Positions 3,473 to 61,490 of a stretch of 64,000 nucleotides of DNA are shown piece after piece. The notes under the pieces are model-generated. The model was not told where the DNA came from, did no database searches, and was given only the letters and a program-made list of their open reading frames with translations. The stretch is from Octopus vulgaris (taxonomy: Eukaryota). Made by a program: the position numbers and the translations under genes. The stretch covers positions 65,224,001 through 65,288,000 of the forward strand of contig OX597815.1 of the NCBI GenBank assembly GCA_951406725.2, written 5' to 3'. The stretch's first letter is position 1. Each line of letters starts with the position of its first letter.

Positions 3473-3510
3473 TCTTTTACGTTTCGAGCCTACGCTCTTC
3501 GACAGAAAGA
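3473..3510 (-). ncRNA. Minimal type-I hammerhead ribozyme motif in the Penelope 3' repeat
   Basis: tcttt-CTGTCGA-a-GAGC(gtag)GCTC-GAAAC-GTA-aaaga. Stem I tcttt/aaaga, 4-bp stem II, GAAA core, GUA cleavage triplet. The core is CUGUCGA rather than CUGANGA. Confidence 0.7.
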
Positions 3511-3699
3511 TACACAGAAAAAACAAGGAGAGAAAAAAATGCATGTAGTAGCTAACGATCTATCATGGCGTCCTGACTTTGGACAATGGTCAGACGCGAG
3601 AGGGACAGTAGGGGAGATAACAGGGTGAAGTGACTTCCAAAACGAAGGTGCCCCCAACACAAAGGTGCGTGTGTGTATAAGAGAGTATGTATGTGCATG

Positions 3700-4385
3700 T
3701 GAAAGAGGGCTGGTGGTCTGGACATGTGTGTGTATGTATGTGTGGGTGTGGAGATGTAGGGATGGGTGTGTGGGTGGTGTGTTGTGATGTGATGTGTGTA
3801 TGTATGTGTAGGTGTAAAGATGTGGGGATGGGTGTGTGGGTGGTATGTTGTGATGTGATGTGTAATGTTGTATGGTGTAGTGTAGTGTGGTGTGATGTTG
3901 GGGGGGGTGAAAGTGGGGAAGCACAGGTGGGGTGTGGGTAGGTAGAGGGTGGGGTTAGAGGTGAGGTATGTGGGGGAGAGGTATGGGATAGGGGTGAGGT
4001 GTGTGGGGAGGGTGTGGGGTAGAATGGGAAGGATAGGGAAGGTGGAGTAGAGGTGGGTGGGTTTATGGAGGAGGGGAAGGTGGGTATATGAGGAGAGAGA
4101 GAAGAGGGGGACGGGGAGGGGGAGAAGAGATGGGGAGGAGGAAGAGGGAGAGGAGGCGGTGGGGAGGGAGGGGAGAGAAGGGGAGTGAGGGAGCAGAGAG
4201 AAAGAGAGAAGGGAGAAGAGAGTAGGGGAGAAGATGGAAAGAGAGTAGAGGGGAAGATGGAAGAAGGGAAAGAAGGGAAGAAGAGGGAAGAAGGGAAAGA
4301 GGGAAGAAGAGGGAAAGAGAGTAGGGGTGAAAAGATGTAGGAGTGAAGAGAAGTAGGAGTCGGGGAGGAGGTTAAATGAAAAGGG
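3700..4385. repeat. G/purine-rich low-complexity tract (3' region of the Penelope element)
   Basis: About 700 bp almost devoid of C on the + strand, with GT-rich then GA-rich blocks and many GGG runs. Confidence 0.85.
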
Positions 4386-6068
4386 GGGATAGTTGAGCCC
4401 AAATGGCACAAAAGAGCGAAGAGAAAAGATTAATCCCTGTTCACGGTGCAATCAGGAATCCGGATGGCCTCTGTGCAAGGACAATTCGAACACAGACAGG
4501 TGTTGCAAGGAGTGACCGGTGGAGTGGAAATGGCGTGAGACTGGAATGTCATTGGCGAGGTGGATGTCTCAGAGGTGTTCCGCGAACTGGTCAGCCAAGC
4601 GGCGTCCCGTTTGTTCGATGTACAGGGAATGGCAGAAAGAGCAAGAGATGCAATATATGATATTGCTATAGGTGCAGGTGAAGGAGTCGATGATGCGATA
4701 GGGTCGATGATGGGTGCCGGTGAGGAGGGTGATGTTGGAGAGGTGAGGGCAAGTGCTGCAGCATGGGCGGGAGCAGGGGAACGAGGTTGGGAAGTAGGGT
4801 TGGGGAAGAAGCTGTGGACCAAGAGGTCTCGTAGGTTATGGGCTCGTTTGAAGGAGGGGAGGGGTCAGTTAGGGAAGAGGTGTGAAGTGGACGGGTCAGA
4901 CTGGAGATGCCGAAAAGCTCGAAGAATGGTGCGTTGGAGAGGTAGGGTGGTGGGGTGGTAAGTGAGGGGAAAAGGGAGGCGGGTTCGAGGAGAGAGAGCA
5001 GATGCACGGTCTACGGAACGTGCTCTGGCAAGGGCAGTGTGGATAGTGGTGAGGGGGTATCCACGTAGGATGAAGTGGTGAACCATGAATTGAGACTGAG
5101 TCTCAAAGTCATGGTCGTCACTACAGAGCCTGCATAGACGGAGGAATTGGGAATAGGGGATGGAAAGCTTGGTGTGTTTGGGGTGGGAGGAAGAGAAGTT
5201 TAGGTATGAGTTTGAGTCTGTGTGTTTGTAGTGAATGGAGGTGGTAAGAGTGGAGTGATGAATGCTGACCGAAATGTCAAGAAAGGAGACAGAGGTATTG
5301 GAGATAGTGCAGGAGAAGTGGAGGGCAGGATGGAAGGATTTAACAAAAGAGAGGAAGGAGTCTAGATGTTCATGGGAGAGTGAGGTGGCACCGATATAGT
5401 CATCAATATAACGACCGTATAGTTCGGGAGTGGGACCAGTGAAACTAGAGAATATTTGGGCCTCAACATAGCCAACGAACAGGTTCGCATAGTTGGGGCC
5501 CATTCGCGTTCCCATGGCCACTCCCGAGACTTGTTGGTAGAACCGGCCCGCGAACGAGAAGCAGTTAAGAGAAAGGACAAGTTCGGCCAGACGAATGAGT
5601 GTGGAGGTGTCGGGTTCAGGGTTGGGGCGGAGGTCGAGAAAGTGTTGAAGTGCACACAGTCCTTTGTGGTGAGGGATGACGGTATAGAGGCTCTGGATGT
5701 CCATTGTAAAGAGGAGTTCGGAAGAGCCAGGAGGAAAGGAGAAAGAGTTGAAAAGCCGGAGAGCATGGTTGGTGTCGTGGATGTGAGAGGGAAAAGACGC
5801 TACTAGGGGGGCAAGGACACGGTCGAGGTATTTTGAGATAAGCTCGGTGGGTCAGTTACAGGCGGAGACAATGGGGCGGCCAGGGTTGTTAGGTTTGTGG
5901 ATTTTGGGGAGGAAGTAAATGGTGGGGGTGCGTGGGGTTCAGACAATGAGGTTGGATGCAGTATGGGGGAGACGGGAGGACGAGATGAGGTCGTGGACAG
6001 TAGAGGGGACCGTCTGTTGGTAGCTAAGTGTGGGGTCAGAGGACAGAGGGGAGTAGAAGGAGGTGTCA

Positions 6069-6114
6069 GATAGATAGATAGATAGATAGATAGATAGGTA
6101 GATAGGTAGATAGG

Positions 6115-6168
<54 letters not shown>

Positions 6169-6180
6169 CACACACACACA
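6069..6180. repeat. (GATA)n + (CA)n microsatellite
   Basis: Directly visible. Confidence 0.95.
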
Positions 6181-6189
6181 GCATACATG

Positions 6190-6478
6190 ATAATGATGGT
6201 AGTCTTGAAGTCTGAGAAAGACAGTCCAGCAATATCTTGCTGAACAACCAGCACAAATGACTTTTACTTGTAAGGATCAAATGTATGTGCTGTATATTAG
6301 CTCACTCCCTTCCCTGAAGAGGTGCAAAATGTACCTTACATCAGGTGTCAAAGTGATCACAGAGCAATGTGAGATTAAATGTTTTTCTCAAGGACACAAT
6401 GCACCATCCAGTACAGGAATTGAAACCACAATCTCATGATCATGAGTGCAACACCCAAACCATTAGGCCATACATGCT
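6190..6478 (-). mobile_element. tRNA-derived SINE, family D (other copies ~9900-10110 -, 22105-22360 +, 22400-22660 -, 41055-41390 -, 61050-61345 +)
   Basis: Shared tRNA-like head (TGGC.TAGTGGTTAGG...GTGGTTTC.ATTCC) and core TTGAGCAAAACACTTCATTTCAC across copies. Confidence 0.7.
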
Positions 6479-6719
6479 CTCATCATGCATACATACATAT
6501 TGCATGTGTGTGTGTGTGTGTGTAACTATATTCCCATTCAAGTGTGTATAATTTATTTCTTTGAGACATACTGTTTGTCTTATTTGTTATAATAAAATAT
6601 CAACACCAGTATACTGAATTTTCTATACAAAGAGCAGACCAGTTGTAAAGCAACAACCAAATCTAATCTATTCTACACACACACACACACACACACACAC
6701 AAAACACACACACAGAGAA

Positions 6720-7090
6720 CAGATGTGAGCATCTTGAATATAGATTTGCGAAGGTTAGAAAGAAATTAGGTGAGCATGCTCCATTGGATGTGTAATGTCA
6801 GTGTTGCATAATCAATAATCACAAATGAGCTGAAAGAAAAAAACTGGAGGAATCAAATGTATGATGAAAGACAGAAGACTGTATTGGTATGGACATGAGA
6901 TGCATAGAGCAGTGGTCAGTTGCATAAAGAAGTGGTAAATCCTCAAAGCATATGGAACTTATGGAAGAACCAAGACCTATAAGACGACATAGTGAAGACA
7001 TCTCTTGGGAAACTGGACCTCATGAAGGAAATGCCAAAAAACAATAGTGGGTTATGTTGCATGGTGCTGGAGCGGACCTACCTACCATGT
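6720..7090 (+). mobile_element. Highly decayed RTE-like LINE 3' fragment
   Basis: Degenerate similarity to the RTE C-terminal WYGHVMR...GRP..TW region (tgtattggtatggacatgagatgc). Similar relic at ~57470-57620. Confidence 0.4.
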
Positions 7091-7374
7091 AAGTATTTTA
7101 GTTAGGAGGTGGAGTGCTCTGAAACAGGTGAAAGGGGGAGTTGGAGACCAGACCTGAAAGTTTGTGACAGGATGGACTCAACTAAAAGTATCTAAAATAC
7201 CAGGTGGTAGTGTTAAACTAAGTGAGAGTTTAATTCTGATACTCATGATAAAAATATATGGGGAGAAGGAAGACTTTTATGGGCAATCGCTTAGTCTTCT
7301 TCAAAAATCTTATCCAGACTTACACTCACACTTATACCACATGTATGGTCAACTTTAATTGACAGAGGCCCAAT

Positions 7375-7412
<38 letters not shown>

Positions 7413-7475
7413 CTAACCCATGCCAACATGGAACACAGACATTAAATGATGTTAGAGATGGAACTTTGGCTTGTA

Positions 7476-8700
7476 CAGGCATACCTCAGCTTAAGACTTT
7501 TTGATTTAAGTCCTTCTTGATTATACGTCAGTTTTCAAAAATAATATATGGAAAAATAAAAACCTAGTTAAGTCATTTTACTTGACTTTTCGTCTATCCA
7601 CCACAACTACTGGATTTGTAAAATCACTAGCAAACCATTAAAAGCACATAAAATCATGTTACTTTACAATAAATAAGAATAAAAGCATATAAAATCATAT
7701 TAAAATATGTACTGTAAATGTTAAGATACACACCTTAAAGAAGCATAGCTTAGTGAACGGAATCATGAAATCAGCTGTGTTATCTTATTTATCGGTCTTT
7801 CAGAGCTCATATTACACTGTTCTTCCAGTACCTACTATTAAGCATCGTTGTCACTTGTGATTGTTTTGAATTTAGATTTGTTTACATCAATTTTTTGACT
7901 ACTTTCTCATTCTCATTCATTTGTGACTTTATTTTTTGCCCCCATGGTTCCCAAGAAAATTCATAGTGAAAGTGCTAAGTGTCATGCTATAACACTGGAA
8001 GATAAACTGACTACAATAAAACACCATGGAAAAGGTGAAAAGGTGGTAGCAATTGCACGATCATTTGGGATGAGTCGGACAACTGTACCGACGATTGTAC
8101 ACAATAAGGACAAGATTTTAGCACATATCAAATCTGAAGCCCCAGGGATGAAGAACACAGCCATCAATAAGAAAAAAGGCAAAATCTTTGAAGAAATAGA
8201 AAGTCTTCTTTCTGGTTGGAGGAGGAGGATTTCACAGATTTATTTGAAAAAGACAAACATCCCTTGATGAATGAGGATTTGATAGAGCTTCATGAGCAGC
8301 AAAATAAAGATGAAGAAGAAGTTGAACTTGAGCCACATCACTTTACCATTAAAAAAATGCAGCAAGCATTTGCATATATTGAAAAATGTCTTTCTATGTT
8401 CAAGGATATGGATCCAAATGCTCAATGCTTTTCCAAGATTATGGGGGCTTGTCAAGAAGCTTTTGCTCCTTATAATGTTATCCTTGAAGAAAAGAAGACA
8501 GTTCAAGGAACTCTCAACTGGATTTTTAAGCGCATCGAACAACAAAGAACAGCCAGTCAGCTATTGATGTTGACGATCCACAGCCATCTATATCCACAAT
8601 GTGAACCACCAAATTGTATATATGTATTGGGCAAATTCAAAATATTTTAGTTTTTTTTACTAGTGCAAAATTATAATAATTACCGAATTTGTTTTTTAAG
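7476..8700 (+). mobile_element. Tigger/pogo (TIGD1-like) DNA transposon, internally deleted
   Basis: TA + CAGGCATACCTCAGCTTAAG terminus at 7476. CENP-B-type HTH ITLEDKLTTIKHHGKGEKVVAIARSFGMSRTTVPTIVHNKDKI is joined directly to the C-terminal LMNEDLIEL...FTIKKMQQAF...DMDPN...EEKK. The DDE domain is missing and no 3' TIR was found. Confidence 0.85.
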
Positions 8701-10256: not shown

Positions 10257-10349
<93 letters not shown>

Positions 10350-11959: not shown

Positions 11960-12232
11960 GTCAAACTAAGTGAATCATAGTCATTGCTAGTGCCAGTGAC
12001 ACGTACAAGGCACACATGCTGGTGACGTGCAATAGGCACATGTAAAAGACACCTCGGCCACTGTAAAGTGGTTGGCATTATGATGGGTATCCAGCTGTAG
12101 AAACCAAATCAAAACAGACAACTGGAGCCTGATGCAGCTCTCCGGTTTACCAGTCCCAGTCAAACTTTCTTACCCATGCCAGCATGGAAAACAAATGTTA
12201 AATAATGATGATAATGAAGATGATGATGATGG
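11960..12232 (+). mobile_element. SINE family C with (GAT)n tail (other copies ~11300-11510, 22695-22970 -, 31750-32140, 38795-39010, 51830-52020, 57275-57440, 57990-58222)
   Basis: Recurrent GTAAAGTGGTTGGC.TTAGGAAGGGCATCCAGC.GTAGAAAC ... ACCCATGCCAGCATGGAAAA...GTTAAA.GATGATGAT. Confidence 0.8.
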
Positions 12233-12234
12233 TG

Positions 12235-12850: not shown

Positions 12851-12879
12851 GTAACAGGTTCATTAAACCTTTTGTTTTC

Positions 12880-16633: not shown

Positions 16634-16639
16634 GATTGT

Positions 16640-17028: not shown

Positions 17029-18953
17029 TCGGTTAATATAGGGCGTTACGATTATCAGAAAATCAAAAAAAAAATGTGTGTAATAGGTGTAAAACAACTT
17101 CCTATGAACGAATATGAAAAAAAAATTCGCGCACGCGAAAGGGGGTGGGGGAGAGGCCTCGGAAAATTCACATCGGGAAGTTCCGAAAGCGTCTGAGGAG
17201 CTGACCCGGGCACCAAAACAAAAAAAAATAGTGTAATATGTGTAAAACAACTTGCTCTAAACGAATATAACAAAATAAATGCGCTCTCGCGAAAGAGGGG
17301 TGGGGAGAGGCCTCGGAAAATTTATATCGGGAATTTCCGAAAGCGTCTGAACCGGGCACAAAAACAGAAACAAAAACAGCGTAATAGGTGTAAAACAACT
17401 TGCTCTAAACGACTATCATGAAAAAAATGCGCGCTCGCGAAAGGGGGTGGGGGAGAGGCTTCGGAAATTTCACATCTTCAGTCCACGGCCTTTAAACTAA
17501 GAAAAAATAGTGTAATTGGTGTAAAACTACTTGTTCTAAACGAGTATCAAGAACACACACTCACACATGAATCATAAACTCCGTATTTTTGTACATATTT
17601 CGCAAAAAAAAAAATAAAGAGAAGAAATTCTGGAAAAAGTGAAGAAATGTTGGATCTCCGCCATGTGAATCAAAATACGTGTCAGAAACATCTTGAAATA
17701 CTACAGAAATTATGTTACGAAAATGATAATGTATACATACCTCTTTGAGTGGTCCATCGATAATGATGATAAAGAAATGAGTTGGATTTGAACTCAGAAT
17801 ATTGACTAACACAACTACATACTACAAGACTCAAAATATTCAGCCAAGTCACCACCCTTTAACTAGCAATAATAATAACATCAATAACATAACAGCCAAA
17901 AGATTTATTTGTTCTGAAAATAACAATCATAGTAAATAAATATGTTCTTTAATATTCACATTCATGTGCACAGTTAAACACACTTACATACAAACAGTCA
18001 CGCATGCATAATACAGAACGGAACACATAAATGAAGGATGCATTACTTAGTATATATTACATCTAGAGAATTTTGATTAATAAGTCAAATATGCAAATTA
18101 TAAAGATAATTAATTGCTTTACTAAACAGTGTTGTAAAGGTGAAAAAATAAATTTGGGAAAAAAATACACGCCAAAACTAATTAATAAAGGATAATAATT
18201 TTTTCTGTCTCTTTTTTTCTGATAAATGCATCTTAATAAGTGAGAAGAATTGCATATATCTGAACTATTTCAAAGAAAAGCATAAATTTAATGTTTAAAA
18301 TAGCTTTAACCAAGGAATGAGATCCAACATTTCTTCACTTTTTCCAGAATTTCTTCTCTTTATTTATTTTTTTTTTGCGAAATATGTACAAAAATACGGA
18401 GTTTATGATTCATGTGTGAGTGTGTGTTCTTGATACTCGTTTAGAACAAGTAGTTTTACACCAATTACACTATTTTTTCTTAGTTTAAAGGCCGTGGACT
18501 GAAGATGTGAAATTTCCGAAGCCTCTCCCCCACCCCCCTTTCGCGAGCGCGCATTTTTTTCATGATAGTCGTTTAGAGCAAGTTGTTTTACACCTATTAC
18601 GCTGTTTTTGTTTTTGTTTTTGTGCCCGGTTCAGACGCTTTCGGAAATTCCCGATATAAATTTTCCGAGGCCTCTCCCCACCCCTCTTTCGCGAGAGCGC
18701 ATTTTTTTTGTTATATTCGTTTAGAGCAAGTTGTTTTACACATATTACACTATTTTCTTTTTGTTTTGGTGCCCGGGTCAGCTCCTCAGACGCTTTCGGA
18801 ACTTCCCGATGTGAATTTTCCGAGGCCTCTCCCCCACCCCCTTTCGCGTGCGCGAATTTTTTTTTCATATTCGTTCATAGGAAGTTGTTTTACACCTATT
18901 ACACACATTTATTTTTTGATTTTCTGATAATCGTAACGCCCTATATTAACCGA
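17029..18953. mobile_element. Foldback-like non-coding element: ~630-bp near-identical inverted arms with internal tandem subrepeats, ~660-bp spacer
   Basis: Left arm 17029-17658 (TCGGTTAATATAGGGCGTTACG...GTTGGATCTC) is the reverse complement of 18319-18953. 130-150-bp subunits start TAAT.(G/T)GTGTAAAAC.ACTT at ~17081, 17234, 17382 and 17513. Confidence 0.9.
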
Positions 18954-21488: not shown

Positions 21489-21590
21489 ATAGTAAATCCA
21501 AAAAAGAAGAACAAACACAAAAACCACAACAACATGAGGATGTGGTACATGTAAAGTATCAGCAGATGCTCAGGGAAAGAAAGAAAGATG

Positions 21591-21625
21591 GTTTAATGTT
21601 TCAAGCAATGCTCTTCTTCAGAAAC
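21591..21625 (-). ncRNA. Decayed minimal hammerhead motif in a solo Penelope-type terminal fragment (~21491-21690)
   Basis: gttt-CTGAAGA-a-GAGC(att)GCTT-GAAAC-att-aaac has the same layout as 3473-3510. The surrounding sequence resembles 3390-3560 (GCTCAGG.A.AGAA..., ...AACAAACA). Confidence 0.6.
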
Positions 21626-22049
21626 AGAGGAAAATCCAATAGAAAGGAAGACAGAGGAAGGAAATCGCCAACAATTCACGTGTGGTTACATAGTCACTAT
21701 GAGAACATTTAAATCTCTTATGAGGATCTTCTTATCCAAAATACACTTGTTCAATAATTTGTATTTTGAGATATTTCTTCAATGAATATATTATATAAAA
21801 TATCATAAAATATCAAATACTATTAAGTTTGAAAACCAATACAAATTAATTTATTATTTAATTAACATCTTAACCTACAATTTTTTCATTTCTCAATCAA
21901 AATTAAAAATGCAAAACATATAAGTATGTAATCTTACATTTTAAAATACCTTGGGGGGAAACTCATCAGGGTGTACAAAAGATACAATGCAAGGATTACA
22001 TTATGATCTGTTGGAATACTCCAATACACTCAGGATGTATATATGTGTA

Positions 22050-23062: not shown

Positions 23063-24886
23063 TCTTATATATAAATGGCAATTTCTGTCTGTCTATCTGT
23101 TACCATCTTGGTGCTTATACCAGCAAACCAGTCTTCCCCAAAGTTTGCATACATGTTGCATACATGCTCAATTATAGGCTAATTGGATTTCAATAAAATC
23201 AATAATGCGCCTCCTATGGGGGTTGGGCTATTATATGATAAAATGAGAAGGGTGCAAAAACTGTCAGGTTGGGGAAATGTGGTGACATAATGAGGGTGGC
23301 TGATATCAGGGAAGGGGAGGACACAGGAAGAGTCTGAGACAATGAGAGACAGGGACAGAGCAGGAGAGAGAGAATGTGTTTACTGAAGGAAAGAGTGAAT
23401 TTTAATATTTTGTTCTTTCATTTTTACCTATCACTTAACGTATATGCTTTATTGAATTAACTATCATATCTCAGTAAAAACTTTTACAATATGTCTAACA
23501 ACAGAGGTTAAACTAATACGGGAAAGGTAATGTATTTTTATATTCGCTTTCAAATCACCGTATTAAGATTTATTAAAACTTTACCAATGTACTGAAACAA
23601 TAACACTATATATATTGTCTTTCATTTTCTCCCATAGATGAATAGCCCATCGTTGTCAGGCAATTTTTACAATAGAATGTCTGATATAAATTTTGGCTTA
23701 TTCCATGTCAGACCATGTCTTCCACGACAGATAGGCCTCTTGATCAGGACAGATTTGCGTAATTTTTCATAAAAAAATTTCCTTGATGTTCTTTTTCCTT
23801 TTTTAATTATATACATGTTTGTTTGACCATTTCCCATGACTTTATTCATTAAAACTTATTAAAACTTCAGAAGACAACTTTGGTTGTCGTAATGCTTTGT
23901 TTAATAATAATTCTTCATTTCATTTTGTGATCGACAGCTATCATGCAGAAAATGCCATCTTCCAAATCCTGTTTTCTGATTAGGTAAAATTGACTAAACT
24001 TTGAACCCCAGTATCAGGGAGGGAGAGAGGACAGGAAGAGACAGAGAGACAGGGAATGTGAGAGTCAGACAGAGAGAATGAGAGACAGGGACAGAGCAGG
24101 AAATAGAGAATGTGTTTACTGAAGGGAAGAGCAAATTTTAATACTTTGTTCTTTAATCTTTACCTATTACTTAACACATGCCTCCCACCTCACAACCTGC
24201 ACCTCATGATTGAGACACCAGTGATGCTTTTAAGAAACTGGACTTAGCCAAGCTTTGCAATGGTGCATGACTTACAATCAACATGATGATGCCAAAAGTT
24301 TAAGAGGCGACCATTCTCACTGGTAAAGCAAGTGGTGGGGTTGTCTTCATACCACAAATTCTGCTGATTCCTCCTGACATGCCATTTGAGTTCAAACAAC
24401 TGAAATTTCCTGTAAAACTGAGTTTTGTAATGACAATAAACAAGACTCAGGGACAGTCCTTGGAGGTGGTAGGCTTAAACCTTGCAGAACTTGTTTCTTC
24501 CCATGGCCAACAGTATGTGCATTGCTCAAGAGTCAGTAATCCAAATCATTTGTTTACTTATGCTCCAGAGGGCAAGACCAAAAATGTAGTATATCAAGAG
24601 GCTCTGCAAAATTGATAATAATCAACTATTAATCAATTGTTTCATAGTCGCACATCATCAATCCTCTCATCCTTCCAACCATCCACCAATTCAACTTTGA
24701 TATTACCTTACCATTACAATCAATCACTTGTATGATTCATGTGTATTACTTGCCAGTATTTGTAAATCTATTTGTAATTTAAACAGAAACTAAACAGGGG
24801 ATGGGATAGGACATGAAACTGTATAATGGGAATAGGAACTGGAAATAATCCCTGTTTTTCCAGGTATTACTAGGTAATTCAGCTAG
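23063..24886 (+). mobile_element. Complete non-autonomous Helitron (internal deletion derivative) retaining the helicase C-terminus
   Basis: A|TC 5' end (TCTTATATATAAATGGCAATTTCTGTCTGTCT) and 3' CTAG|T at 24883-24887. PIF1 C-terminal motifs PVMLLRN, KLCNGARL, FPVKLSFVMTINKTQGQSL, SHGQQYVHCSRV, KTKNVVYQEAL at ~24180-24615. Confidence 0.88.
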
Positions 24887-27780: not shown

Positions 27781-28622
27781 TTAACCCTTTCATTATCATA
27801 TTTCTGCTGAAATACACTGACATTACTTCAATTAATTTTTAAAACAAAAATGACTTTAGTCAAATAACTCTCATTATTAAGCTGGTGTTAAGGCAGCAAA
27901 CAGACAGAATTGTTAGCATGCTGCACAAAATACTTAGTAGCATTTTTTCTGTCTTTATGTTCTGAGTTCAAATTCTGCTAACTTTGGCTTTGCCTTTCAT
28001 CCTTTCAGGGCCTATAAAATAAGTACAGCACCGGGGTTGATGTAATTGACTTCATCCCTTTCCTGAAATTTCTGACCTTGTGCCAAAATTTTAGACTATC
28101 GTTAAGCTGGTGTTTGGGACATAAATTAACATGACATTTTAATAGAAAGTTTTAATTTGAATCACTTTAACTATTTAGTATTCAGATAAATATTACATTT
28201 CACAGAGTAATCATCATCATCATCATCATCATCATCGTTTAGTGTCCGTTTTCCATGCTAGCATGGGTTGGATGGTTCAGACCCCAGTAGAACCGTCCAA
28301 CCCATGCTAGCATGGAAAACGGACGCTAAACGATGATGATGATGATGATGATGATTACTCTGTGAAATGTAATATTTATTTGTATTGTTTCTAAGTTAAT
28401 CATGCATTATCTCATAGCTTTGAGATTTTGATGAAGTGATGGCTTATTTTTTGAATGACATTGTAGGCTAAGTGTGAGAGGCTGGATCTGGTTGATTCGA
28501 ACATAAGACAGGAAGAATATTTGGAGTTCATATGGCTAGTTTTAGTGCTAAAGGATTAAAACAGTAAGGTTGTAGCATAGAATCAGGGTGGTCTCAGGAG
28601 AATTAGTGTCAAAGGGGTTCAA
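27781..28622. mobile_element. Nested cluster: TTAA-type MITE containing a SINE B (27890-28101, 13-bp TSD), a second MITE and a fold-back SINE end
   Basis: Termini TTAACCCTTT...AAAGGGGTTCAA. TSD TTAAGCTGGTGTT at 27877-27889 and 28102-28114. Confidence 0.7.
28186..28379. repeat. Near-perfect ~90-bp-arm palindrome (11-nt loop)
   Basis: ATAAATATTACATTTCACAGAGTAATC(ATC)n GTTTAG...GGTTC / AGACCCCAGTA / GAACC...CTAAAC(GAT)nTACTCTGTGAAATGTAATATTTAT. Confidence 0.95.
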
Positions 28623-33102: not shown

Positions 33103-33971
33103 ACTGGGTGTGATGAGTATATTGTCACCATTTTATATTTTTAATTTCATGTATGAACATTGTTTGTTTCTGATTTTAACCACATAGTATAGTAGGATCA
33201 GTTGGGCACAGTCTGTGAGAAAAACAGTACCATGACACTATTAACTCTGCCAGAAATTTGGAAATGACATGCTGTACTGCTTGGCATTTGCATCAGAAGC
33301 TCCAATACGAACATTTCAGAGTGTTTGGGTGTCAATCTGAGGACAGTGCAATCTGAGGACATGTAAAAAGAATGATAAAAATCAAACACCCAGTCAACAA
33401 TATGGTGCGTGGAGTGATCACTAGTGATGGTGACGTTATGCCTCCATTCATCTTCCCACACGGCCTCAACACGGAGACCTACATCAAGTGCCTGGAGAAG
33501 GTGGCGCTGCCCTGGGTCAAGAGAGTGGCTGCTGGAAGACCCTATGTCTGGCTACAAGACTCTGCATCATGCCGCACAAGCAGAAGAACCCAGTCATGGC
33601 TGTCAGACAATTTCTGTGACCACATCATCCCTAACATCTGGCCACCTGACTCTCCAGCCTACAAAACCCTTGATTATCATGTGTTGAGCAAGAGACCAAC
33701 AAGACTCCTTGTAACACCAAAGATCAACTGAAGGCAAAGCTTATGGCAGCATTCACCAACTTAAACAAAGGGACCGTCCAGAAGAGTTGCAGGAGATTCT
33801 AAAGTCATCTGACAGCCGTGGTTGAAGCCAATGACGATTTTCTTGAATAATTTTACACTTTAGTATTTCAAGATATATTTTTGTAATTTTGGTAAATATA
33901 TCTGTTAAAATAGGATTCATGAATTTGTAGTTATTATTATTTTTTTTTTTATTCCTTCGTAACACAGTGTA
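33103..33971 (+). mobile_element. Tc1/mariner-superfamily (maT/DD37D-like) non-autonomous element, copy 1
   Basis: KHPVNNMVRGVITSDGDVMPPFIF, YVWLQDSASC, WPPDSP..KTLDY. Homologous to 49623-50503. Confidence 0.85.
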
Positions 33972-36703: not shown

Positions 36704-36927
36704 ATAAATATTAGGGAATAAATCCAACTTTACAGGGAAAAAAAATCAGATTTAGGATTAAATCCAATTTTATAGTAAAATATTATAAAATATTATTAGA
36801 GACAAAACCACTATTTTGCAAAACAAACAAGGAAAGACTTAATCAATACATAAAATTTTAATAAATAGTCAAAAAAACCGCCACTACAATCGTTTCTTGT
36901 CTTGATCGACAATCTTCAGGTGGACTT

Positions 36928-36930
<3 letters not shown>
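36701..36930 (-). mobile_element. ~230-bp AT-rich hammerhead-bearing element between two (TA)n runs
   Basis: Flanked by (TA)n at ~36652-36700 and 36931-36960. The end motif AGGGAATA..ATCC.....TACAGGGAAAAA is shared with 58550-58585. Confidence 0.65.
36881..36923 (-). ncRNA. Minimal type-I hammerhead ribozyme with intact catalytic core
   Basis: ccac-CTGAAGA-TTGTC(gatcaa)GACAA-GAAAC(gatt)GTA-gtgg. Perfect stems I and II, a near-palindromic stem III (acgattgt) and a GUA triplet. Confidence 0.85.
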
Positions 36931-39406: not shown

Positions 39407-40304
39407 CATCATCATCATTGTTCAACCGTGGTCGAGACAATGGAATTTACTATGTTACGCCAGACTTCACGGTCCATCATAGCATTACGGAGGTCCTGTT
39501 GCTGGATGCCTGTATCCCTGGAGATTACATCAGGGTAGGAGAGTGTGCGCCCTCTGGTATTGCGAGTAGATGGCTTCCAGAGGAGAAGAGTAGAAATTAC
39601 TTCTTTTTCAGCTCTACAACAATGTCCAGCAAACTGGACTCTCCTACCTTTTACAAGAGATGACACAGGTGGTAATTTCCCATATATTTGCATTTTGGTT
39701 GGATGGCGCTTCCACAAGAGATTTTGAGCTCTCATAAGGAGGCGAGTGTAGGTTCCATCCAACCGCCTCTCAAGCTTCTTTGATAACGTCCAGGTTTCTG
39801 AGCCATATAGTAGAATTGGTTCGACTGTGGCTTTGAATATTTCAAGTTTGAAGTCTCTACTTAGATTTGATGACCAGATCTTATGCATGTCATTACAGGC
39901 TGACCAGGCCATACCCTTTCTAGTTAGAAAGTCTTTTCCAGATGATGATATGTATGACCCAAGATATTTATAATCAGTAACCATATTTAAAGGCGCACTG
40001 TTGAGAGTGTGGATGATGCAATCACTGTTGGACAGGCACTTGTTTATGTATTCAGTTTTGGCCTCATTGAGGTAAAGACCTACACAATTTGAGGCTTGTT
40101 CAAGAGATTGTAAAAGAGACTGGGCATTGGAGAGAGAATCACTGATAAGAGCGATGTCGTCAGCAAAGTCAGTGTCTGTCAAGTACTCAGCTGGGTGTCT
40201 GGAACTTCTTCTTGGTTTTATTTCAAAGCCCTTGTCAGAGATGGTATCAACTGACATACGTAGCACATAATCAACAACAATGATGAAAAGAAATGGAGCG
40301 AGGT
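39407..40304 (-). mobile_element. Young 5'-truncated RTE/RTEX-type LINE (RT C-terminal half, open frame) inserted into a SINE B
   Basis: Uninterrupted ORF with LAPFLFIIVVDYVLR, DTDFADDIAL, YKYLGS, VEPILLYGSETW, FAGHCCR. (GAT)n tail. Exact 11-bp TSD AAAATGCCATT at 39396-39406 and 40305-40315. Confidence 0.93.
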
Positions 40305-43300
40305 AAAATGCCATTAAGCATTTTACCTGCTGTGCTAACGATTCTGCCAGCTCACCACTTTAGATCAAGCTATATGGTTAAAAAGCTTCCTTTGCAACCA
40401 TGTGTTTCAGGTTCAGTCCCACTCTATTACACCTTGGGTAAATGTCTTCTACAATAACCCCAGGTGCCATATAAGAATTTGAGAGATAGAAGCTGAAAGA
40501 AGCCAGTTGTGTGTGTGTGTGCGCACACATGCGTGTGTGTGTGTGTGTGTATGGTTCTTTGTGTTTGTGCTTGTACCCTACCACTACCTGACAACTAGTG
40601 TTGGTTTGTTTACATTCTCACAACTTAGCAGTTCAGCAAAATAAACCAATAAAATAAGTAGCAAACTTAAAAAGAAATGCTGTGGTCAGCTAAGCCCTTC
40701 AAGGCTGTGCCCCATGTTAGTCACAGACCAATAACTGAAACAAGTAAAAGATTAACAGATAAAAGATGCCTCTCTACCTCACTGGTCACAATGCACTTCC
40801 ATTCTTTCTTTGATTGTGTCCTTCTTTACTGGTTGAGTCTGAATTGCTTGTCTGTCATCTTACTATTATTTTGGATGTCTTATGAGTGGTATCTTCTGAT
40901 CTTCTGGATATCATTTGACAACTATACAGGCCTACCTCTAATCTGTAAACCTTGTAATATATCCAGCCCAGTAGAACTTGAGCTTTCAGTATCTCCATGT
41001 AAAATGTTGAAACAAAATAACTGAGAACTGCAAATACCTAAGTTAGTAGAATATTACAGACCCCCTTTGGTCATGAAAGACCATGGGACTGTATTTAGAA
41101 AGTTTCACTCCGAGGCACAAGTCCAGGCAAGGTTGTTTATGGAAGACCAGCAATTGCTCATGTATACTAGCCTCCCCTCTTCATGCTACCGATGTTATCC
41201 AAGGTAAAGGCAAAGGTTTATACAGCTTGGCACAAATGACGCTGCAACTTGTTTCTACAGCTGAGTGAACTGGAGCATCATGAAATAAAGTATCTTGCTC
41301 AAGAACACAACACACAGTCCAGCATAGGAATCAAACTTACTACCTCATGACTGTGAGCCCGACACTCTAACCACTGAGCCATGCACCTTTAGAGACCCAA
41401 TTAAAGGGTCAGCAATGTGTGCCCCATCATGAGCACTGCATTTTATGGTGAATGGTGGTTATATGTCACAGAACAAGACACTGTTGGGATATTTGTTTGC
41501 TTGTAATACTAAGTCTAAGGGATTTGTCTTTCACCACCCCCACTCACTGGTGGCAAATAGAAGAAAAGCCATGACCAAGTAGTGCTATGATGGTGTATGA
41601 AAGGGAAAAATACAAATAAGTATTGCAATGCTACAAACTTGATCAATTGATAAGATGAATATAAATGTGCAGGTGTTCTAGAAAGAAGCCTGGTTTGGGG
41701 CATTACAAGAACCAACTTGAAACAGAAAAAGGAAATAATCTCTCAGATGTGACCCAATGCACTTAGAGTTATTACATTTGTGAGATCACACAAGAGAACA
41801 CATACTATTCTATCTCCTCAAATTCTTAGCTTCTATAATTTATTTCTACTGTTCAACTGATCTATTACAGGCCGCACATGGTTTATACACAATCATGTGA
41901 AGGTGAGTGACCTTGTAGGCTTATAATTGTGATGTAGACCAATGTCAGCAGCAATTTGTTTTTTATTTTCTTTTTTTTCTTCAAAACGTTTATTTCCTTC
42001 ATTTTCAAAGAGTTTGGCTCCCTGGTGAACTAGTTTTCTCTCCTTAAGATGGTCTATCACCAGTTCTTCCTTTTCATTTCACCCTAACAATGTCTCAGAA
42101 CTTCAGATTCTCTTTTAACAGATCTTTAAAGTATTTCTTCAGCTGACCTTTTGATTGCTTTCTTTCATTCAGTTGGTAATAGAAAGCATGTTTTTGAAGC
42201 TGATTACGAATCATTTAGCTGAGATGAACTCCCACCCCACCACCACACCTGAATTGGTTTATGATGACAATTTCTTCAATATTGGTTGTTTTAGCTTCAT
42301 TGATCTTCATTGATCTTCATTCAGTCATTGTCCCAGCTGATTTCAATGCTTCTAAGGCGTTGATAATGAAAATGTTCTAAGTTTTCAGGTTGTCCATAAT
42401 TTCAGTCTAGAAAGGGATTCTGACAATTACAGACGTGTAGTCAGTCATTTTTGCATCATCTTTGAGATTTGGTTCTTGTATACTCATGCCCAAAAGTGAC
42501 CAAAAGCTACTCCAGCACAATAACGTTTGTACAGGATCTCATCAACAATGTCAACCTTCTAAATATATTCTACAAATTAGTTGAGCTCATTATTGTAAAT
42601 TTCAGTGGTATTTTATAATAGAGAATCTCCTTTACTCCACCCAAGACCACTCCTAGCTTGATGATGTACACTTCCTGTTTTAAAATCATCTAAATGAAAG
42701 CTTCCTATCCAAAATTTCATGGCCATTCATATTCAAAATACCAGCTTAATAATGACAAATTTATAAAATAAAATTCTTCATTATTTCCAAATTTAATTGA
42801 AAAATGCAGTGTAGTTCTTCAACAGAAATATGGCAACAAATCAGTTTATCAATTTTCTTACATTTTCCTTTTCTTTTGTGGGGTGGTTTAAGTTGGTTTT
42901 ATATCCAAGTAGGGAAGGTCTCAGTGCATTTTGAACCAAATACTCCTATTGTTAGATGTCCTTTGAAGAAAATCAGCTCTGAAGAAAATACAAACAGTGA
43001 GCACAATCTAAAGGTATGTGCCAATCAGACAATTTCCCAGAAGCCCCATGGGCCTAAGAGGGTTCCAATGCTAATCTATGTATGCAGTGGCTGCATATGT
43101 TGCTATATTGCTAAGCTGAAGGGCCTATAATGCCATCAAAATGACCCTGAGGGCAGTATCTCTTTTTTTAGTTTCTCAGACTGAGGTCAATAGATTAATG
43201 TAATTTGATTATGGTTGTAATAAAATATTTAATTTGTAACCAATTATAATCATCAACAGACCACCTTGGCTCCACAGAATTTATTCTTTTTTGATCGTTT

Positions 43301-49627: not shown

Positions 49628-50503
49628 GATGTAATGAATAAATTGTCATCTAAATTATGCAAAAATAAAAATAACACTGACATCTCATTTTAACAGATAT
49701 GTTTACTAAATTACATAAAAAATATCTTGAAATACTAAAGAGTAAATTTATTCAGTAAAATCGCCATTGGCTTCAACTGTGACCTCCAGACGACTTCAGA
49801 ATCTCCTGTAACTCTTCTGGATCGCCTTCTTCTTTAAGATGGTGAATGTTGCCACAATCTTTGCCTTCAGTTCATCTTTGGTGTTACAAGGAGTTTTGTT
49901 GGTCACTTGCTCAACTGTACCACATACATGATACACAAGGGGGTGGCAGTCTAGGGAGATAGGTGGCCAGATGTTAGGGGTGATGTAGTCGCAGAAATTG
50001 TCTGACAGCCATGACTGGGTTCTTCTGCTTGTGTGGCATGATGCTGAGTCCTGTAGCCAGACATAGGGTCTTCCAGCAATCACCCTCTTGACCCAGGGTA
50101 GTACTATCTCCTGCAGGCACTTGATGTAGGCCAACACGTTGAGTGTGAGGCCATATGAGAAGATGAATGGAGACATAATGTCGCTGTCACTAGTGATCAC
50201 TACAAACATCATGATGTTGACTGGATGTTTGATTTTTATCACTCTTGGTACATGGCCTCAGATTGACACTCAAACACTCTGAAATGTTTGTATTGGAGCT
50301 TTCAGCACAAATGCCAAGCAGTGCAGCATGTCATTTTCAAATTTCTGGCAGAGTGGATTGCATCATGGTGCTGTTTTTCTCACAGATGGTGCACAACTGC
50401 ACTGCCCCTATTATACTGTGTAGTCAACAAAATCAAAAACAAACCACGTGCATGTGCAAAATAAAAAATATTGAATGGTGATAATTTATCTGTCACACCC
50501 TGT
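49623..50503 (-). mobile_element. Tc1/mariner-superfamily (maT/DD37D-like) non-autonomous element, copy 2
   Basis: ORF 49796-50242 has KHPVNIMMF, YVWLQDSASCHTSRRTQSWL, WPPISLDCHPL.Y. TIRs TACAGGATGTAATGAATAAATT and ATAATTTATCTGTCACACCCTG. It shares the same internal deletion junction (CAATCTGAGG.CATGTA...TGATAAAAATC) as copy 1. Confidence 0.88.
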
Positions 50504-53113: not shown

Positions 53114-53150
<37 letters not shown>

Positions 53151-54132: not shown

Positions 54133-54210
<78 letters not shown>

Positions 54211-54211
<1 letters not shown>

Positions 54212-55393: not shown

Positions 55394-55859
55394 CTACATT
55401 TTTTTCCAGGTAACACTTCTATTATTTTAATTAATTATATTTACCTTTATACTTTTTATTCTAGTAATACTAAAAATAAGGCAGAAATGTTTTTAGCTTA
55501 ATACAAAGAACTTTTAAAATCAAAAATATTAACTTAAATTTTTAAAAATTTGCAATAAAAAGCAAAAAATAAAAATTATTAAAAACAGAAAAGTGCACAC
55601 ACCATTTGATGAACAACTTCAGAAATTTATTTTGATCCAAATTTTCCTGAGCACCTTCAGCTTCATTTTTCTCAATTTTTGTTGAGTAGCTAGTCATGTA
55701 TCTGGTCAATATCATACTGACAGTCAACATTTGCCTGCCATATCAAACATAAAGGATTGTAATCATTGATAAATTTTTCAGATGATTTTCTTTGAAGTTG
55801 ATAAAGCTTTTTAACACTTTTTTCATTTCTTCTTAATTTAACACTTTCAGCAACAGTAA

Positions 55860-56290
55860 AGGAGATGAATCTTCCTTCAGCCTTAGGAAAGCCAAATAGA
55901 CATTATTTTACCACATTCTTAGCATTTTCTACAAATTCTCTAGGTTTTGCTGCATGAATGCATTTGAAAACTACTGACCAAATTGTAAAGATTGGGGTTA
56001 GATGCTGAACACAGCAATCTGGAAGTAATGTATTGTTCAATAAATTTAAAGTTTTTTTCAGGAGAATCGTTTTTAAAAATAGGTGCTTGATCCACCCAAA
56101 TTTTCATATGAATATAAGGAGCCTCTCTTTGTTGAGACTCTATTCTCCAAATATAATGCATGATGTTGTTTGCCACAAATCCGATTGTTTTTTTGTTGTT
56201 TTTTTTGCCAAAACTACTTTATTCATTATAGCTTGCAATTGGTGATTAAAATGTTCATTAACAGCAATAACATCATTTATACACAAAGAG
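55860..56290 (-). pseudogene. Helentron/Helitron2-type Rep (HUH) fragment
   Basis: WRIESQQREAPYIHMKIWVDQAP...FIEQYITSRL...NLYNLVSSFQMHSCSKT, followed by CLFGFPK. This matches the R.EFQ.RG.PH.H...W...AP...FI..YIT...Q.H.H..TC...C.FGFP pattern. Confidence 0.75.
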
Positions 56291-56334
56291 CTTGTTTTAA
56301 CAGTTTGAATATATATATATATATATATAATGTA

Positions 56335-56407
<73 letters not shown>

Positions 56408-57087
56408 ATAAACTTTGAAGTGCTGACTGGATTGGTATTTTAGAGAAAAGGAAGGAAATCCCAAACACAGAATCGTTCTGAAAACAACTAAGGAGATCAG
56501 GTAAATACCCTTGGAAAATGGGGGAAAAAAATGGCTAGCAAGAGAATCAAAATTTGTATCTCTCAAATTCCAATGAAGCACTCTGTGTCATTAAATTAAG
56601 TGATTCTTGACATCAAAGACTGTCTTTCATCAAGTTAGATATCTTAAAAATGACAAAAATATTTGGATTTTTTAAAATGATCACTTTTTTTTTCGTCACT
56701 TATAGTCACACTCCCTTTTTGTAGCTAATATGATGAGGTTTTCACCATCAGATTCATCTGATAGAGCTCTTTCATTTGAACACAACTATTGTAGTTCTCT
56801 TTTGTAAAAGCTGAGATATTTTGATTCAAAGTCAATTTTGAAGCTTACTTACCATCTTTTACATCACTTAAAGCCACACTATTTTTTTTAACTATTATTT
56901 TTTAACAAGGTTTACACCAAAAGATTCTTCTCAATGAATACATGCTTATAAACCTAATCAATCTGTACTTTTCTTCTAAAATAACCAAGATATTTTCATT
57001 CAAAGTAAATTTTTGGCCTTACTCTGCCAATTTTTGACCTCACATAGTTTGACCTAACTTTTTTCTCAATGAGCCACATTTCAATTA

Positions 57088-57165
57088 CTCTATCTCCAAA
57101 TGTAGTTGAAGACAGGATCATCATTGCTCTATCTCCAAATGTAGTTGAAGACAGGATCATCATTG
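57088..57165. repeat. Exact 39-bp tandem duplication
   Basis: CTCTATCTCCAAATGTAGTTGAAGACAGGATCATCATTG occurs twice. Confidence 0.9.
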
Positions 57166-58485
57166 CTAAAAGAACCACATTCAATTTAGTTAAGAACTGA
57201 ATTAGTGATGAAGCCTAGAATTGCTCATGGGCGACTAAAGTTAAATTTAATATAAATATATATATAATAATACATATGCTGTAAAGTGGTTGGCATTAGG
57301 AAGGGCATCCAGCCACTAAAAACATGCCACATTTGACAATGGAGCTCAATGCAGTGTTGTGGCTTGCTGGATCTAGTCAAACTTTTCAACACATACCAGC
57401 ATGGAAAGACTGACATAAAACGATGATGATCATGACAATGATCATAATTATAATATTGCATAAAGACATGCTAATTGCTAAATGGACGATGGAACTCATG
57501 GAAGACAAAGACCTTGGTAGACATTGGATGAGGTGGTGAAGAATGAGCTCAAGGTGCTGAGCCTCATGGAAATGGCAAAGAACTAAGACGATGGGCAAGT
57601 TTTTGTGCTTAAGAAAACCCATCAACCCAAGGACAAATAAGTCCTTAAAACCATATCACTTATGTTTATGCCCTTGTGCCCAATCCTCTACTTTTCCCTC
57701 TGACAAAGATTTATGACTGACCTTACCTCCACCCCTGTTCTCCCATCACTGCATCTCCTATCCACAATCCCTTGAAGTTACTTCTACACCCTTACTACTT
57801 CTCATTCATTTACCTATCTGCAACTTGAGGGCACATCATGACACATCTTCACCAACATCCTCCGAACCCTAACCCTACCCAACAGCAAAACACCTCTTCC
57901 TGTTCCATCTTGATACTTTAACATCCAATCACTTCATATAAAGCCACCTTCCTCACTACCACTCACCACCACTTCAGCAGAGGTGGGGATCTTCTCTTGC
58001 AAGTTACTTGGTAACCTCACTGGTGTTGGTGCCATGTAAAATTTACCCAGTACACTCTATAAAATGGATGGTGCTTGGAATGCCAAGTCATAGAAACCAT
58101 GCCAAAGCAGACATTGGACCTTGATGCACTCTTCTGGCTGGCCAGCCTCTGTTGAACTGTCCAACCCATGCCAGCATGAAGCATGGATGTTTAATGATGA
58201 TGATGATGATGATGATGATGATGCATACATGCATACATATATATATGTATACCAAATTAACTCACAAGACTGTGGTTGGACAACCAATGTCTTGTGAGTG
58301 GATTTGGTAGACAGAAACTGAAAGAAGCCCATCAAGTATATATATCAAATATATATATATATATCAATATATATATATATATATATATATATACAAACAC
58401 ACACATATATTATGGCTGCCCCCTCGTTATTGAGTATGGCCATTGCACGAAGTTTTATACATACATACATACATACATACATACA

Positions 58486-58521
<36 letters not shown>

Positions 58522-58530
58522 TATATATAA

Positions 58531-59625
58531 TAATATTAATTATTATTATTTGAGGGAATATTAATCCTAACATACAGGGAAAAATTCAATTTAGAAATAC
58601 TAAATCAAATTTCACACAATATTATATATATATATAGAAATGAGAAAAAACCACCTTTTATCAATTCAAAATGAACAATTAAATTACACCATCTAGAAAA
58701 TTACATATAATAGAAATATTAAAATTAAAATAACAATAATATACCGATGATTAAGTAAATTGCCAAAAAATAATAAAACGTATATAATTGGTAGAATAAC
58801 GACACGTGTTTTGTGGCTATATTTAATAAATGATTATAGTAAAACAATTAATAGTAGTAGTAAAATCACTTTGATATAAATATAGCCACTCATCAGGTTA
58901 AAAATATACTAGAATAATAAAATAATTAATTAATAAATATAATTTAAAGAAAACTAAAAACAATATTTAAATTATTCAATACTTTAAAATTAATTGATAT
59001 ACACAATGTTAGTACAAGTCATTAATATTGTAATCAAAATAAGAAATGGTTCAAATATAGACAAATTCATTAAATAAGCTAACTATATAATTAATATATG
59101 TGTAGTATCTATAGATTTAATATATCACTCTATAATATAGTTGACTAAATATCAATTAATATAATACGTAATTATCTTAAATTTAATACTACTTAATAAA
59201 TATACCACCTAACAATTAAATAATACATTGTCTAACAAAATTAATTCTCAAATTAAATTAAATGTAATATGTTAGATCCCTTTATAAAAAAAATCTAGAT
59301 AAATAGATATAAGAATTAATATCTATCGTAACTTATACCTAACAATATATATAAAGATGATATAATAGTGAGAATTATTTGCAAATGGAAAGTAAGAAAC
59401 ATTTAAGCCCCATAAATTAAAGAAAGGTGCAAAAATATTAGAACAAATGAACAATACACTATGAAGATTTTCAATCACAACCACCAGTCCACTACAAATC
59501 CAGTCAATAACAATAATAATAATAACAATGATCAAACTCAAAATAATACAAGATCCAAATAATATTGATAAACAAACTATGTTACGAAGTTCAACGATTA
59601 AATTAATCTATCTGGATTAATATAC
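58531..59625 (-). mobile_element. ~1.1-kb very AT-rich non-coding hammerhead-bearing element adjacent to (TACA)n/(TA)n
   Basis: Shares its end motif with 36701-36930 and contains the hammerhead at 58797-58900. The distal boundary is uncertain. Confidence 0.5.
58797..58900 (-). ncRNA. Type-I hammerhead motif with greatly extended stem II; the core G of GAAA is mutated
   Basis: taac-CTGATGA-GTGGCTATATTTA(~50 nt)TAAATATAGCCAC-aAAAC(acgt)GTC-gtta. 13-bp perfect stem II base, palindromic stem III acacgtgt, GUC triplet. Confidence 0.75.
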
Positions 59626-60307
59626 CCATATATATATGCATATGGGGGTGAGTATCTTTATGTCTGTATTTGTCTCTCACCACCACTTGATAACCAGTGT
59701 TGGTGCGTTTACATCCCTGTAGCTTAGCAGTTTGTAAAAGAGACCAATAGAAGAAGAACCAGGCTTTAAAAAAGTAAGTACTGGGGTTGATTCATTCAAC
59801 TAAAAATTCTTCAAGGTGGTGCCCCAGCATGGCTGCAGTGTAATGACTGAAACCAGTAAAAGATAAAAGATATATTTAAGTAATAATTTATAATAATAAT
59901 ATAAATAATAATTTTAATTAAGAAAGAAGTCAAATTGATGTTACAATTGTTTCTATAAATGAACTATATTTTTATTTCATATCTCATACAATGTTATGCA
60001 ATTCATACAATATCATTTAGTACATGGAAATATGTGAAAATAATCCTATTGTACATTCACTTCCTCAGATGTCATGATTTGAAGGCACAATCAACCAAAT
60101 AAGTGTTTTAGGATAAGTTCATTTGGGTGTGTTGCAACATGTAAATAGACTGAAAACTGAAAGCTTTCGCTTGATATTTCCTGTAGGTTTTAAGACAATC
60201 TTAATAAAGAGTTATAGGAGTAGATCAAAATAAAAAGTAGCACAAGGAGGAGGAGCAGCAGCAGCAGCAGTAGCAGAAAAAGAAAGATGAAGAAAAAAGG
60301 AGGAGGC

Positions 60308-60338
<31 letters not shown>

Positions 60339-60851
60339 AAGAAGAATAGAAGGAGAAAATGTGGAGGGATAGAAGTGGGAGGGGGGAAGAAGATTCCCAG
60401 GACTACAGCACAAGGACAAGGAGGGAGAGTAGAAAGAGGAGGAGGATATAACATCCATTTTCCATGCTGGTTGTTTGTCAGAAATGTGTTCCCTACAAGT
60501 GAAAACAACACAGGTAACAAGAGTCAACAGAGTTTAACCTTTATCAGCTTGGCCAATTGCAGCTCCTCCTTCCAAAATATTTGCCAATTGTAATGCCCTG
60601 TATGTGACTTTCAGCAGAGATAAAGTCTGCTGTAAATGATTTATATTTGACCTTTAGTTCATATGGAATGTTTCTGAGAGATCAAAAAAAATCAATCCTG
60701 AGAAAAATATTTTCAGCTGTTTTGGACAGAGGTCAAGAACAGTTTAGCTCACTGTTGAATTATTGTGAGAAGAAGACAATGGTAAGACATCAGTAACAGC
60801 ACTCTCTATTAAAAAGAAAATGTATATTGCCAGAAGGATGCATGCACACAC

Positions 60852-60906
<55 letters not shown>

Positions 60907-61402
60907 TGCACACACTCACACACATACATGTACACACACATATACACACAGATACATGTATACATATGTATGTGTGTGCATGTACATGCATATATATATA
61001 TATTGTATATGCTTATGATATATATGTTTGCATATGTTTATATATGTGTGCCCACATGGCCTAGTGGTTAGGGGTTGCATTCATGATCACTAGATTGTGG
61101 TTCCAATTCCTAGATTGGGTGGTGCAAAGTATTCTTGAGCAACATACTTTTTTGTATTGCTCTGTGATCACTTTGACACCTGATGCATGGTACACTGTGC
61201 ACCTATTCAAACAACGTCATCTTGATGGAGGGAGTGAACTGATGTGCAGCACATACATCTGATTCCTATAAACAAATCATTTGTGCTGGTCACTCAGCTA
61301 AAGCTGAACACTCATATGCCATCTTCAATGGGAAAGTCCACCATATATATGAATATATATATATATATATATCAAAATAAGCAACAAGGATATCCAGAGG
61401 TA

Positions 61403-61490
61403 ATGCAGTACGATCATTTCAAGCAACTCCATTTAATTGAACAATGCAATCATTACATCAATTTATATGTAGAGCAATCCTCAGCTGCAT
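61403..61490 (-). ncRNA. Decayed type-I hammerhead motif
   Basis: atgcag-CTGAGGA-(~55 nt, poorly paired)-GAAAt(gatc)GTA-ctgcat. 6-bp stem I and near-palindromic stem III; lies ~30 nt from a (TA)n run. Confidence 0.55.

Follow-up and report, generated by a model that had tools for sequence, protein, structure and literature searches.

Six hammerhead ribozyme motifs were recognised on the minus strand of a 64,000-nt stretch of the Octopus vulgaris genome (GenBank assembly GCA_951406725.2, contig OX597815.1, positions 65,224,001 to 65,288,000; hereafter the window). Judged from the sequences, these are very probably hammerheads carried by separate high-copy repeats, two traced to Penelope-like elements (PLEs) and four likely to belong to such elements, with a shared strand that is likely due to chance. 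The pairing of hammerheads with PLEs is already known and the octopus set adds members to it; the result most worth following is a pattern of spliced and unspliced copies in the family of site 3.

Hammerhead motifs in the window

A sequence-only reading had reported five minimal motifs, all on the minus strand, and these were confirmed at their coordinates and with their stem I pairings. The core it described, CUGANGA followed by GAAA, is exact at sites 2, 3 and 5, whereas site 1 reads CUGUCGA and site 4 AAAA; all of its stem III words are likewise present, but stem III of site 2 (ACAU) is not self-complementary (duplex +3.4 kcal/mol). A sixth motif (site 6) had been overlooked. A relaxed scan gave nine candidates, of which six were sites 1–6; the other three, including the sole plus-strand one, had no homologue in the collected loci, so that, with the sixth motif added, the strand tally became six of six minus. 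The core CUGANGA...GAAA...UH is exact at sites 2, 3, 5 and 6 and is recovered in family copies of site 4. Stem I comprises 3–6 bp at all six sites and stem II 4–13 bp at sites 1–4, while self-duplexes through stem III are predicted for sites 1, 3, 4 and 5 and for the family forms of sites 2 and 6, and are predicted to be lost in the window copies of the latter two.

Chance matches in AT-rich DNA (the window is 37% GC, with many microsatellites) scarcely merit consideration as an explanation. Monomer folding energies were no better than those of shuffles at five of the six sites (z-scores near 0; site 4, −4.66), a score that is uninformative for motifs so small, and no hammerhead was found by an Rfam scan among the 150 of 184 matches listed, which were microsatellite-driven microRNA matches. 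Against this, the strict descriptor gave 3 matches in the window and a mean of 0.01 (maximum 1) over 100 block-wise dinucleotide shuffles, not the equal frequency that the sequence-only reading had named as refuting it; this control is partly post hoc because the descriptor was loosened at A6 and G12 only after the sites were inspected. Family alignments are the stronger evidence, and on these sequences the chance reading is already refuted: core and palindromes are recovered in family copies, stems I and II are maintained with differing sequences across families, and a site-3 relative has A-U in place of U-A as the first stem II pair.

Of the window motifs, only site 3 is both canonical and undamaged; sites 2, 4 and 6 are decayed copies and sites 1 and 5 have family-wide defects. 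Among the collected loci (with some overlapping loci retained), U occupies position 6 in 45 of 48 site-1-type sequences and a weakly pairing stem II strand is found in 14 of 23 site-5-type sequences, site 5 itself opening stem II with two U.U mismatches and having 0 contiguous pairs. A natural A6C hammerhead variant has low activity (PMC3088659); an A6U variant was not seen in the consulted section of that paper. The stem III palindrome of site 2 was lost through a CpG-type change. At site 4 the window copy has AAAA for the GAAA retained in 9 of 10 other aligned copies, and is predicted to be inactive owing to G12A. Stem II of site 6 pairs only with one base skipped, and stem III is palindromic in family copies (ACAAUUGU). 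Sites 2 and 6, members of different families, share a strand and are separated by about 250 nt in a single microsatellite-rich patch (window 21489–22040).

Repeat families and copy numbers

The earlier claim of several distinct families and a diverse set of ribozyme-bearing retroelements held: the collected loci formed 22 seed clusters, of which four singletons were discarded as likely chance. In this 2.8-Gb animal genome, first-look counts, to be read as lower bounds, gave at least 1,755 (site 1), 3,351 (site 2), 963 (site 3), 1,308 (site 4), 1,805 (site 5) and 343 (site 6) candidates. Approximately 18 families were represented in the gene-body sample described below, including ones with U3-A8 covariant cores, CCGA cores and a 10-nt palindromic stem III, at a density of about 62 copies per Mb. 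With about 4 motifs expected in every 64 kb, the window looks like an ordinary sampling of a very common class of repeat.

The copies have (TA)n flanks and head-to-head pairs are frequent; the lists for sites 4, 5 and 6 include inverted pairs. The ends of site 1 are related to those of site 2, and those of site 3 to those of site 4; the site-4 tail aligned to the site-3 tail with a score of 71 (shuffle maximum 57), and the site-4 repeat likely belongs to the Hydra clade. Pseudo-long terminal repeats (pseudo-LTRs), inverted 5' copies, an optional tail (two 3' end points) and TA targets were all seen in the site-3 family, in which 44 of 51 listed matches were 100% identical over 106 nt (self counted), pointing to a very young family.

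Table 1. Hammerhead motifs and associated repeats in the window.
Feature	Positions	Strand	Description
Site 1	3473..3510	-	Minimal hammerhead; core CUGUCGA (A6U); additional A ahead of 4-bp stem II; palindromic ACGU stem III
Neptune-type PLE	3365..6067	-	5'-truncated, broken; RVT_1 E 6e-6; endonuclease/pseudo-LTR linkage in other copies
Site 2	21591..21625	-	Decayed minimal hammerhead; CpG changes in stem III and where stem II meets G12
Solo pseudo-LTR-like repeat with site 2	21489..21692	-	Related to site-1 end
Site 6	21873..21972	-	Hammerhead; long stem II; stem III decayed
Site 3	36881..36923	-	Intact minimal hammerhead; 5-bp stem II; 8-nt near-palindromic stem III
Solo pseudo-LTR + tail of young Hydra-clade PLE	36712..36930	-	Flanked by (TA)n runs; begins at the element's 3' splice site
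Site 4	58797..58900	-	Hammerhead; 13-bp stem II base and long hairpin; G12A in window copy
PLE-like repeat 3' fragment with site 4	58480..59618	-	Tail homologous to site-3 tail
Site 5	61403..61490	-	Hammerhead; stem I of 6 bp, stem III of 8 nt; stem II closes poorly throughout the family
PLE-like repeat 3' fragment with site 5	61365..62045	-	Head-to-head pairs at other loci

Parent elements

Assignment of the motifs to the minimal type-I hammerheads of PLEs, as first proposed, was supported; at sites 1 and 3 only, an open reading frame (ORF) with reverse transcriptase (RT) and C-terminal GIY-YIG endonuclease could be tied to the terminal repeat. The site-1 motif is contiguous with RT (~4868–6060) and GIY-YIG-type endonuclease (~4400–4820) remnants, followed by a low-complexity 3' untranslated region and the pseudo-LTR (~3365–3585) that holds the site. 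The site-1 pseudo-LTR lies downstream on the same strand, within approximately 1 kb, in 17 of the 24 other copies of the endonuclease. With its Cx4Cx2C linker and CCHH-type endonuclease, this parent is of the Neptune type, or possibly Nematis, by the published motif descriptions (PMC8557442, in part).

The ORFs at loci L091 and L092 are intact (841 and 838 aa), and the site-3 repeat lies directly ahead of them and again 3.5 kb beyond; they have the DKT motif, a CxCx5C linker, CxxC and CxH, with KWK in place of RWK. These motifs, together with (TA)n insertion and a canonical hammerhead, place the parent in the Hydra clade as described in the sections consulted of PMC8557442; a 'Neptune' label used at first was replaced following the motif list published for the clades. 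In the 3' region of the parent (L091:4930–6600), a C/A-rich block precedes a G/T-rich block ahead of the intron donor, a possible long fold-back. A second Hydra-type PLE family (L087–L090) has intact frames of 843–962 aa, 52% identical to the site-3 RT region, and a long-stem-II hammerhead about 580 nt ahead of the ORF.

Spliced copies of the site-3 family

The site-3 family possesses a 1,828-nt GT-AG intron (L091:6605–8432; see also loci L257–L281) that ends about 10 nt ahead of stem I. Of 29 other sampled loci, 17 retain the intron end, 11 have an exact exon-acceptor join and 1 is truncated between the two. The spliced copies are short and uncut and reach only 9–23 nt above the junction, and 6 of the 11 have a spliced head-to-head twin. 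Among 30 ORF loci, the ORF start is visible in 22 and the ribozyme lies upstream in 16, all of them unspliced (11/29 against 0/16 ORF-adjacent, Fisher p 0.003). The spliced copies bear several variants that are also found in unspliced parents, which suggests that they arose repeatedly and not through a single deletion. Since the window copy begins at the junction, it is not assignable to either class.

Transcription would start about 20–25 nt above the donor, similar to Penelope of D. virilis, whose intron lies 46 nt downstream of the transcription start (PMC2377424, in the part consulted). Spliced RNA would then have been reverse-transcribed from the tail, yielding short dead ends. An antisense template has been proposed to account for PLE intron retention and head-to-head repeats (PMC3846280); judging by the sequences and by the published model in the portion consulted, the spliced twins are at odds with it in the site-3 family. 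We give about even chances to a reading in which the DNA of this family records both templates, spliced uncut sense RNA giving the short solo ends and head-to-head twins, and unspliced RNA alone giving the ORF copies. If this is true and unreported, it would explain the keeping of introns by PLEs, spliced RNA being copied but a dead end, and would count against the antisense-template model. No report of spliced PLE copies was found in the literature, for which subscription coverage was incomplete. PLE intron retention and ribozyme function are both termed unresolved in the part consulted of PMC8557442; both questions could be studied well in this young family, which combines intact ORFs and a defined intron with spliced as well as unspliced copies and a ribozyme that hardly varies.

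Cut or uncut templates

The reading that we favour for the spread of these repeats follows published work on PLEs. A sense RNA would be made from a promoter in the pseudo-LTR, the PLE endonuclease would nick (TA)n DNA, and reverse transcription would begin within the RNA, at the 'tail' that lies just beyond the ribozyme. Copying would proceed back through a mostly uncut hammerhead and end at the RNA 5' end or earlier, leaving very many solo ends of 150–250 nt that retain the whole ribozyme and may point either way. Cutting by the ribozymes would be weak, taking place only in dimers or when assisted by protein.

Copy ends at the predicted cut were considered as evidence of cleavage in vivo and rejected. 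When queried with the part after the cut, alignments started at the cut in 0 of 30 (site 1) and 0 of 38 (site 3), and in the sampled regions in 0 of 14, 0 of 14 and 0 of 6, with 1 of 23 in another family (1/57 overall); the near-full element at L034, described below, is a further case. The 5' ends of most site-1 and site-2 copies lie 60–107 nt upstream of the cut. Since copies almost never start at the cut, the copied RNAs would appear to be mostly uncut, or re-joined, in agreement with in vitro data in which most of the substrate is RNA that has not been cut and RT initiates internally (PMC11167929, in the sections consulted). Minimal PLE hammerheads cleave poorly in vitro (PMC4209133, likewise in part), and two abundant families have spread while carrying damaged ribozymes, namely the site-1 type (U6) and the site-5 type (weak stem II).

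Strand orientation and alternative explanations

It had been suggested that the one-sided orientation could have arisen because a plus-strand host intron had been purged of sense copies. No antisense bias was found when the intronic check proposed with this idea was run on 21 myosin and sodium-neurotransmitter-symporter genes, located by exon order and comprising 1,195,002 bases between exons. The homology search, which used 18 of the 22 seed clusters (the four singletons having been discarded beforehand), gave 35 sense and 39 antisense copies, or 25 and 29 without inverted pairs (p 0.68; 95% interval of the antisense share 0.40–0.67). Intact-looking cores numbered 16 sense and 18 antisense, and a descriptor-only count with all clusters retained gave 14 and 18. 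Neighbouring copies were same-stranded in 21 of 38 cases, and the counts per gene were not overdispersed (p 0.43). Among 54 copies, 29 or fewer antisense would be unlikely at a true antisense share of 0.7 (p 0.008), whereas a share of 0.65 is still compatible with the count (p 0.057). The 70-kb flanks of the window hold 5 plus and 4 minus copies (window and flanks together, 10 of 15 minus, p 0.30), and a Poisson estimate at 62 per Mb gives about 195 windows genome-wide with at least five same-strand copies and about 45 with at least six. A Pfam search for host exons in the window and 70 kb on each side (204 kb), covering 150 of 181 flank segments and, of 225 candidates listed in the window, 14 + 150 segments after the removal of transposable-element-like ones, revealed no clear host exon, a test that short or unannotated exons could escape; its matches were transposon-type domains, two zinc-finger-type and one weak Rep.

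Several observations weigh against our overall reading. Pfam gave no RT or GIY-YIG match for the Hydra-type ORFs, for which reason their clade assignment is by motifs alone, and no parent ORF was found among the collected loci for sites 2, 4, 5 and 6. An apparent link between a site-2-like end and the second Hydra ORF (L087) proved to be a separate insertion and was rejected, the end lying within its own TA run and three sister copies bearing a different hammerhead. At L034:1195–1369 (G000:C1 near 218,253,400), a near-full site-3 element with an inverted segment ahead of its 5' repeat has that repeat starting within one base of the predicted cut, and cleavage may therefore sometimes shape the template. 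With regard to strand, the six-of-six tally of the window has a two-sided p of 0.031 when taken alone, one myosin gene has 7 antisense copies to 1 sense (its removal leaves 24 sense and 22 antisense), and a bias of up to about 67% antisense lies within the interval above, in a gene sample of two families only.

The window tally and the 7:1 gene are what the purging of sense ribozymes, with antisense copies left behind, would lead one to expect, and there is precedent in the parts consulted of two reports: an engineered fast hammerhead in a zebrafish intron cuts expression up to 20-fold (PMC11856399), and retrozymes are reported to be depleted from Xenopus introns (10.64898/2026.07.22.740005). 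Purging is nevertheless very improbable here, as the 21 genes are without bias, intact-looking cores included, the flanks are mixed and the Pfam search, a weak test, revealed no host exon, while three of the window copies are decayed and two more come from families with fixed defects. A shared strand arising by chance is the most likely explanation; directional purging is not expected under the scheme proposed above because weak cutting would cost host introns too little, and the absence of an antisense bias in introns suggests that PLE hammerheads rarely cut host pre-mRNA. No report of such an orientation bias for these hammerheads was found in the literature, again with incomplete subscription coverage.

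Retrozymes, the other class of element first put forward, were not supported by the arrangement of the motifs, none of the six sites lying within a tandem array in the window. It is conceivable, and on the present evidence unlikely, that sites 2, 5 and 6 represent non-autonomous retrozyme-like families spreading from their own short RNAs through PLE proteins in trans. The search of collected loci yielded no parent ORF for these three, the site-2 family consists mostly of short copies, and animal retrozymes have been proposed to be PLE derivatives (10.64898/2026.07.22.740005, in part). The sites are, however, without tandem units, the parent search was confined to loci already collected, and most site-1 family copies are equally short, yet a coding parent exists.

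Comparison with known hammerhead elements

The following comparisons are with the sections consulted of each source. Minimal hammerheads in PLE terminal repeats, mainly solo and in many families, were described in 2014 by Cervera and de la Pena (PMC4209133). The octopus motifs resemble those of the metazoan pseudo-LTRs in their type-I layout, 4–6-bp stem I and palindromic stem III, in the additional base ahead of stem II (sites 1 and 2), in the occurrence of many families per genome, mainly as solo copies with some close opposite-strand pairs, and in an intron end adjoining the ribozyme, as in Penelope of D. virilis. They differ in the 8-nt stem III words of sites 3–6, the long stem II hairpins of sites 4–6, the family-wide A6U of site 1, the U.U opening of stem II in place of G-C at sites 5 and 6, and the octopus density of about 62 per Mb.

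The site-3 parent shares with the Hydra-clade PLEs of Craig et al. 2021 (PMC8557442), whose hosts include Mollusca, the C-terminal GIY-YIG, DKT, CxCx5C linker, CxxC and CxH, as well as (TA)n targets and a canonical hammerhead. Those elements are generally <3 kb and have RWK, whereas the site-3 parent has KWK and exceeds 6 kb, its 3' region spanning 3.5 kb and its intron 1,828 nt. The site-1 parent is similar to Neptune/Nematis elements (PMC8557442) in its RT, Cx4Cx2C linker and CCHH-type endonuclease; unlike these, the window copy is broken. As in Poseidon of Anolis (Frangieh et al. 2024, PMC11167929), the tail is defined by two 3' end points, copies have an uncut ribozyme and targets are AT-rich; the Poseidon ribozyme, for which protein-assisted cleavage has been demonstrated, overlaps the ORF start, whereas that of the site-3 family lies about 240 nt upstream of the ORF. 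Animal non-LTR retrozymes (PMC7229834; 10.64898/2026.07.22.740005) are likewise short, non-coding, PLE-linked repeats with type-I hammerheads, but the six octopus sites are not tandem and two have coding parents.

An octopus repeat annotation paper (PMC13282606) mentions PLEs and, in the part consulted, not ribozymes. No report of octopus hammerheads was found in the literature, although the supplements of PMC4209133 and PMC8557442 might list these families or A6U.

Other elements in the window

A fold-back element at 17029–18953 has inverted arms of about 600 nt (96–99% complementary), composed of 148-nt tandem units, on either side of a 727-nt spacer, and a near-perfect 141-nt palindrome at 28214–28354 consists of two head-to-head common-repeat ends with (ATC)n tails. 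The first 2,400 nt (1–2400, minus strand) hold a broken Helitron-like PIF1 helicase region (PF05970, E 2e-58), with a further helicase piece at 24304–24612. Two inverted Tc1/mariner-like transposase remnants (33199–33916 and 49682–50399; 83–86%) lie 16 kb apart, and a 314-aa open C-terminal RT fragment of a long interspersed nuclear element (RVT_1, E 4e-7) occupies 39418–40359 on the minus strand.

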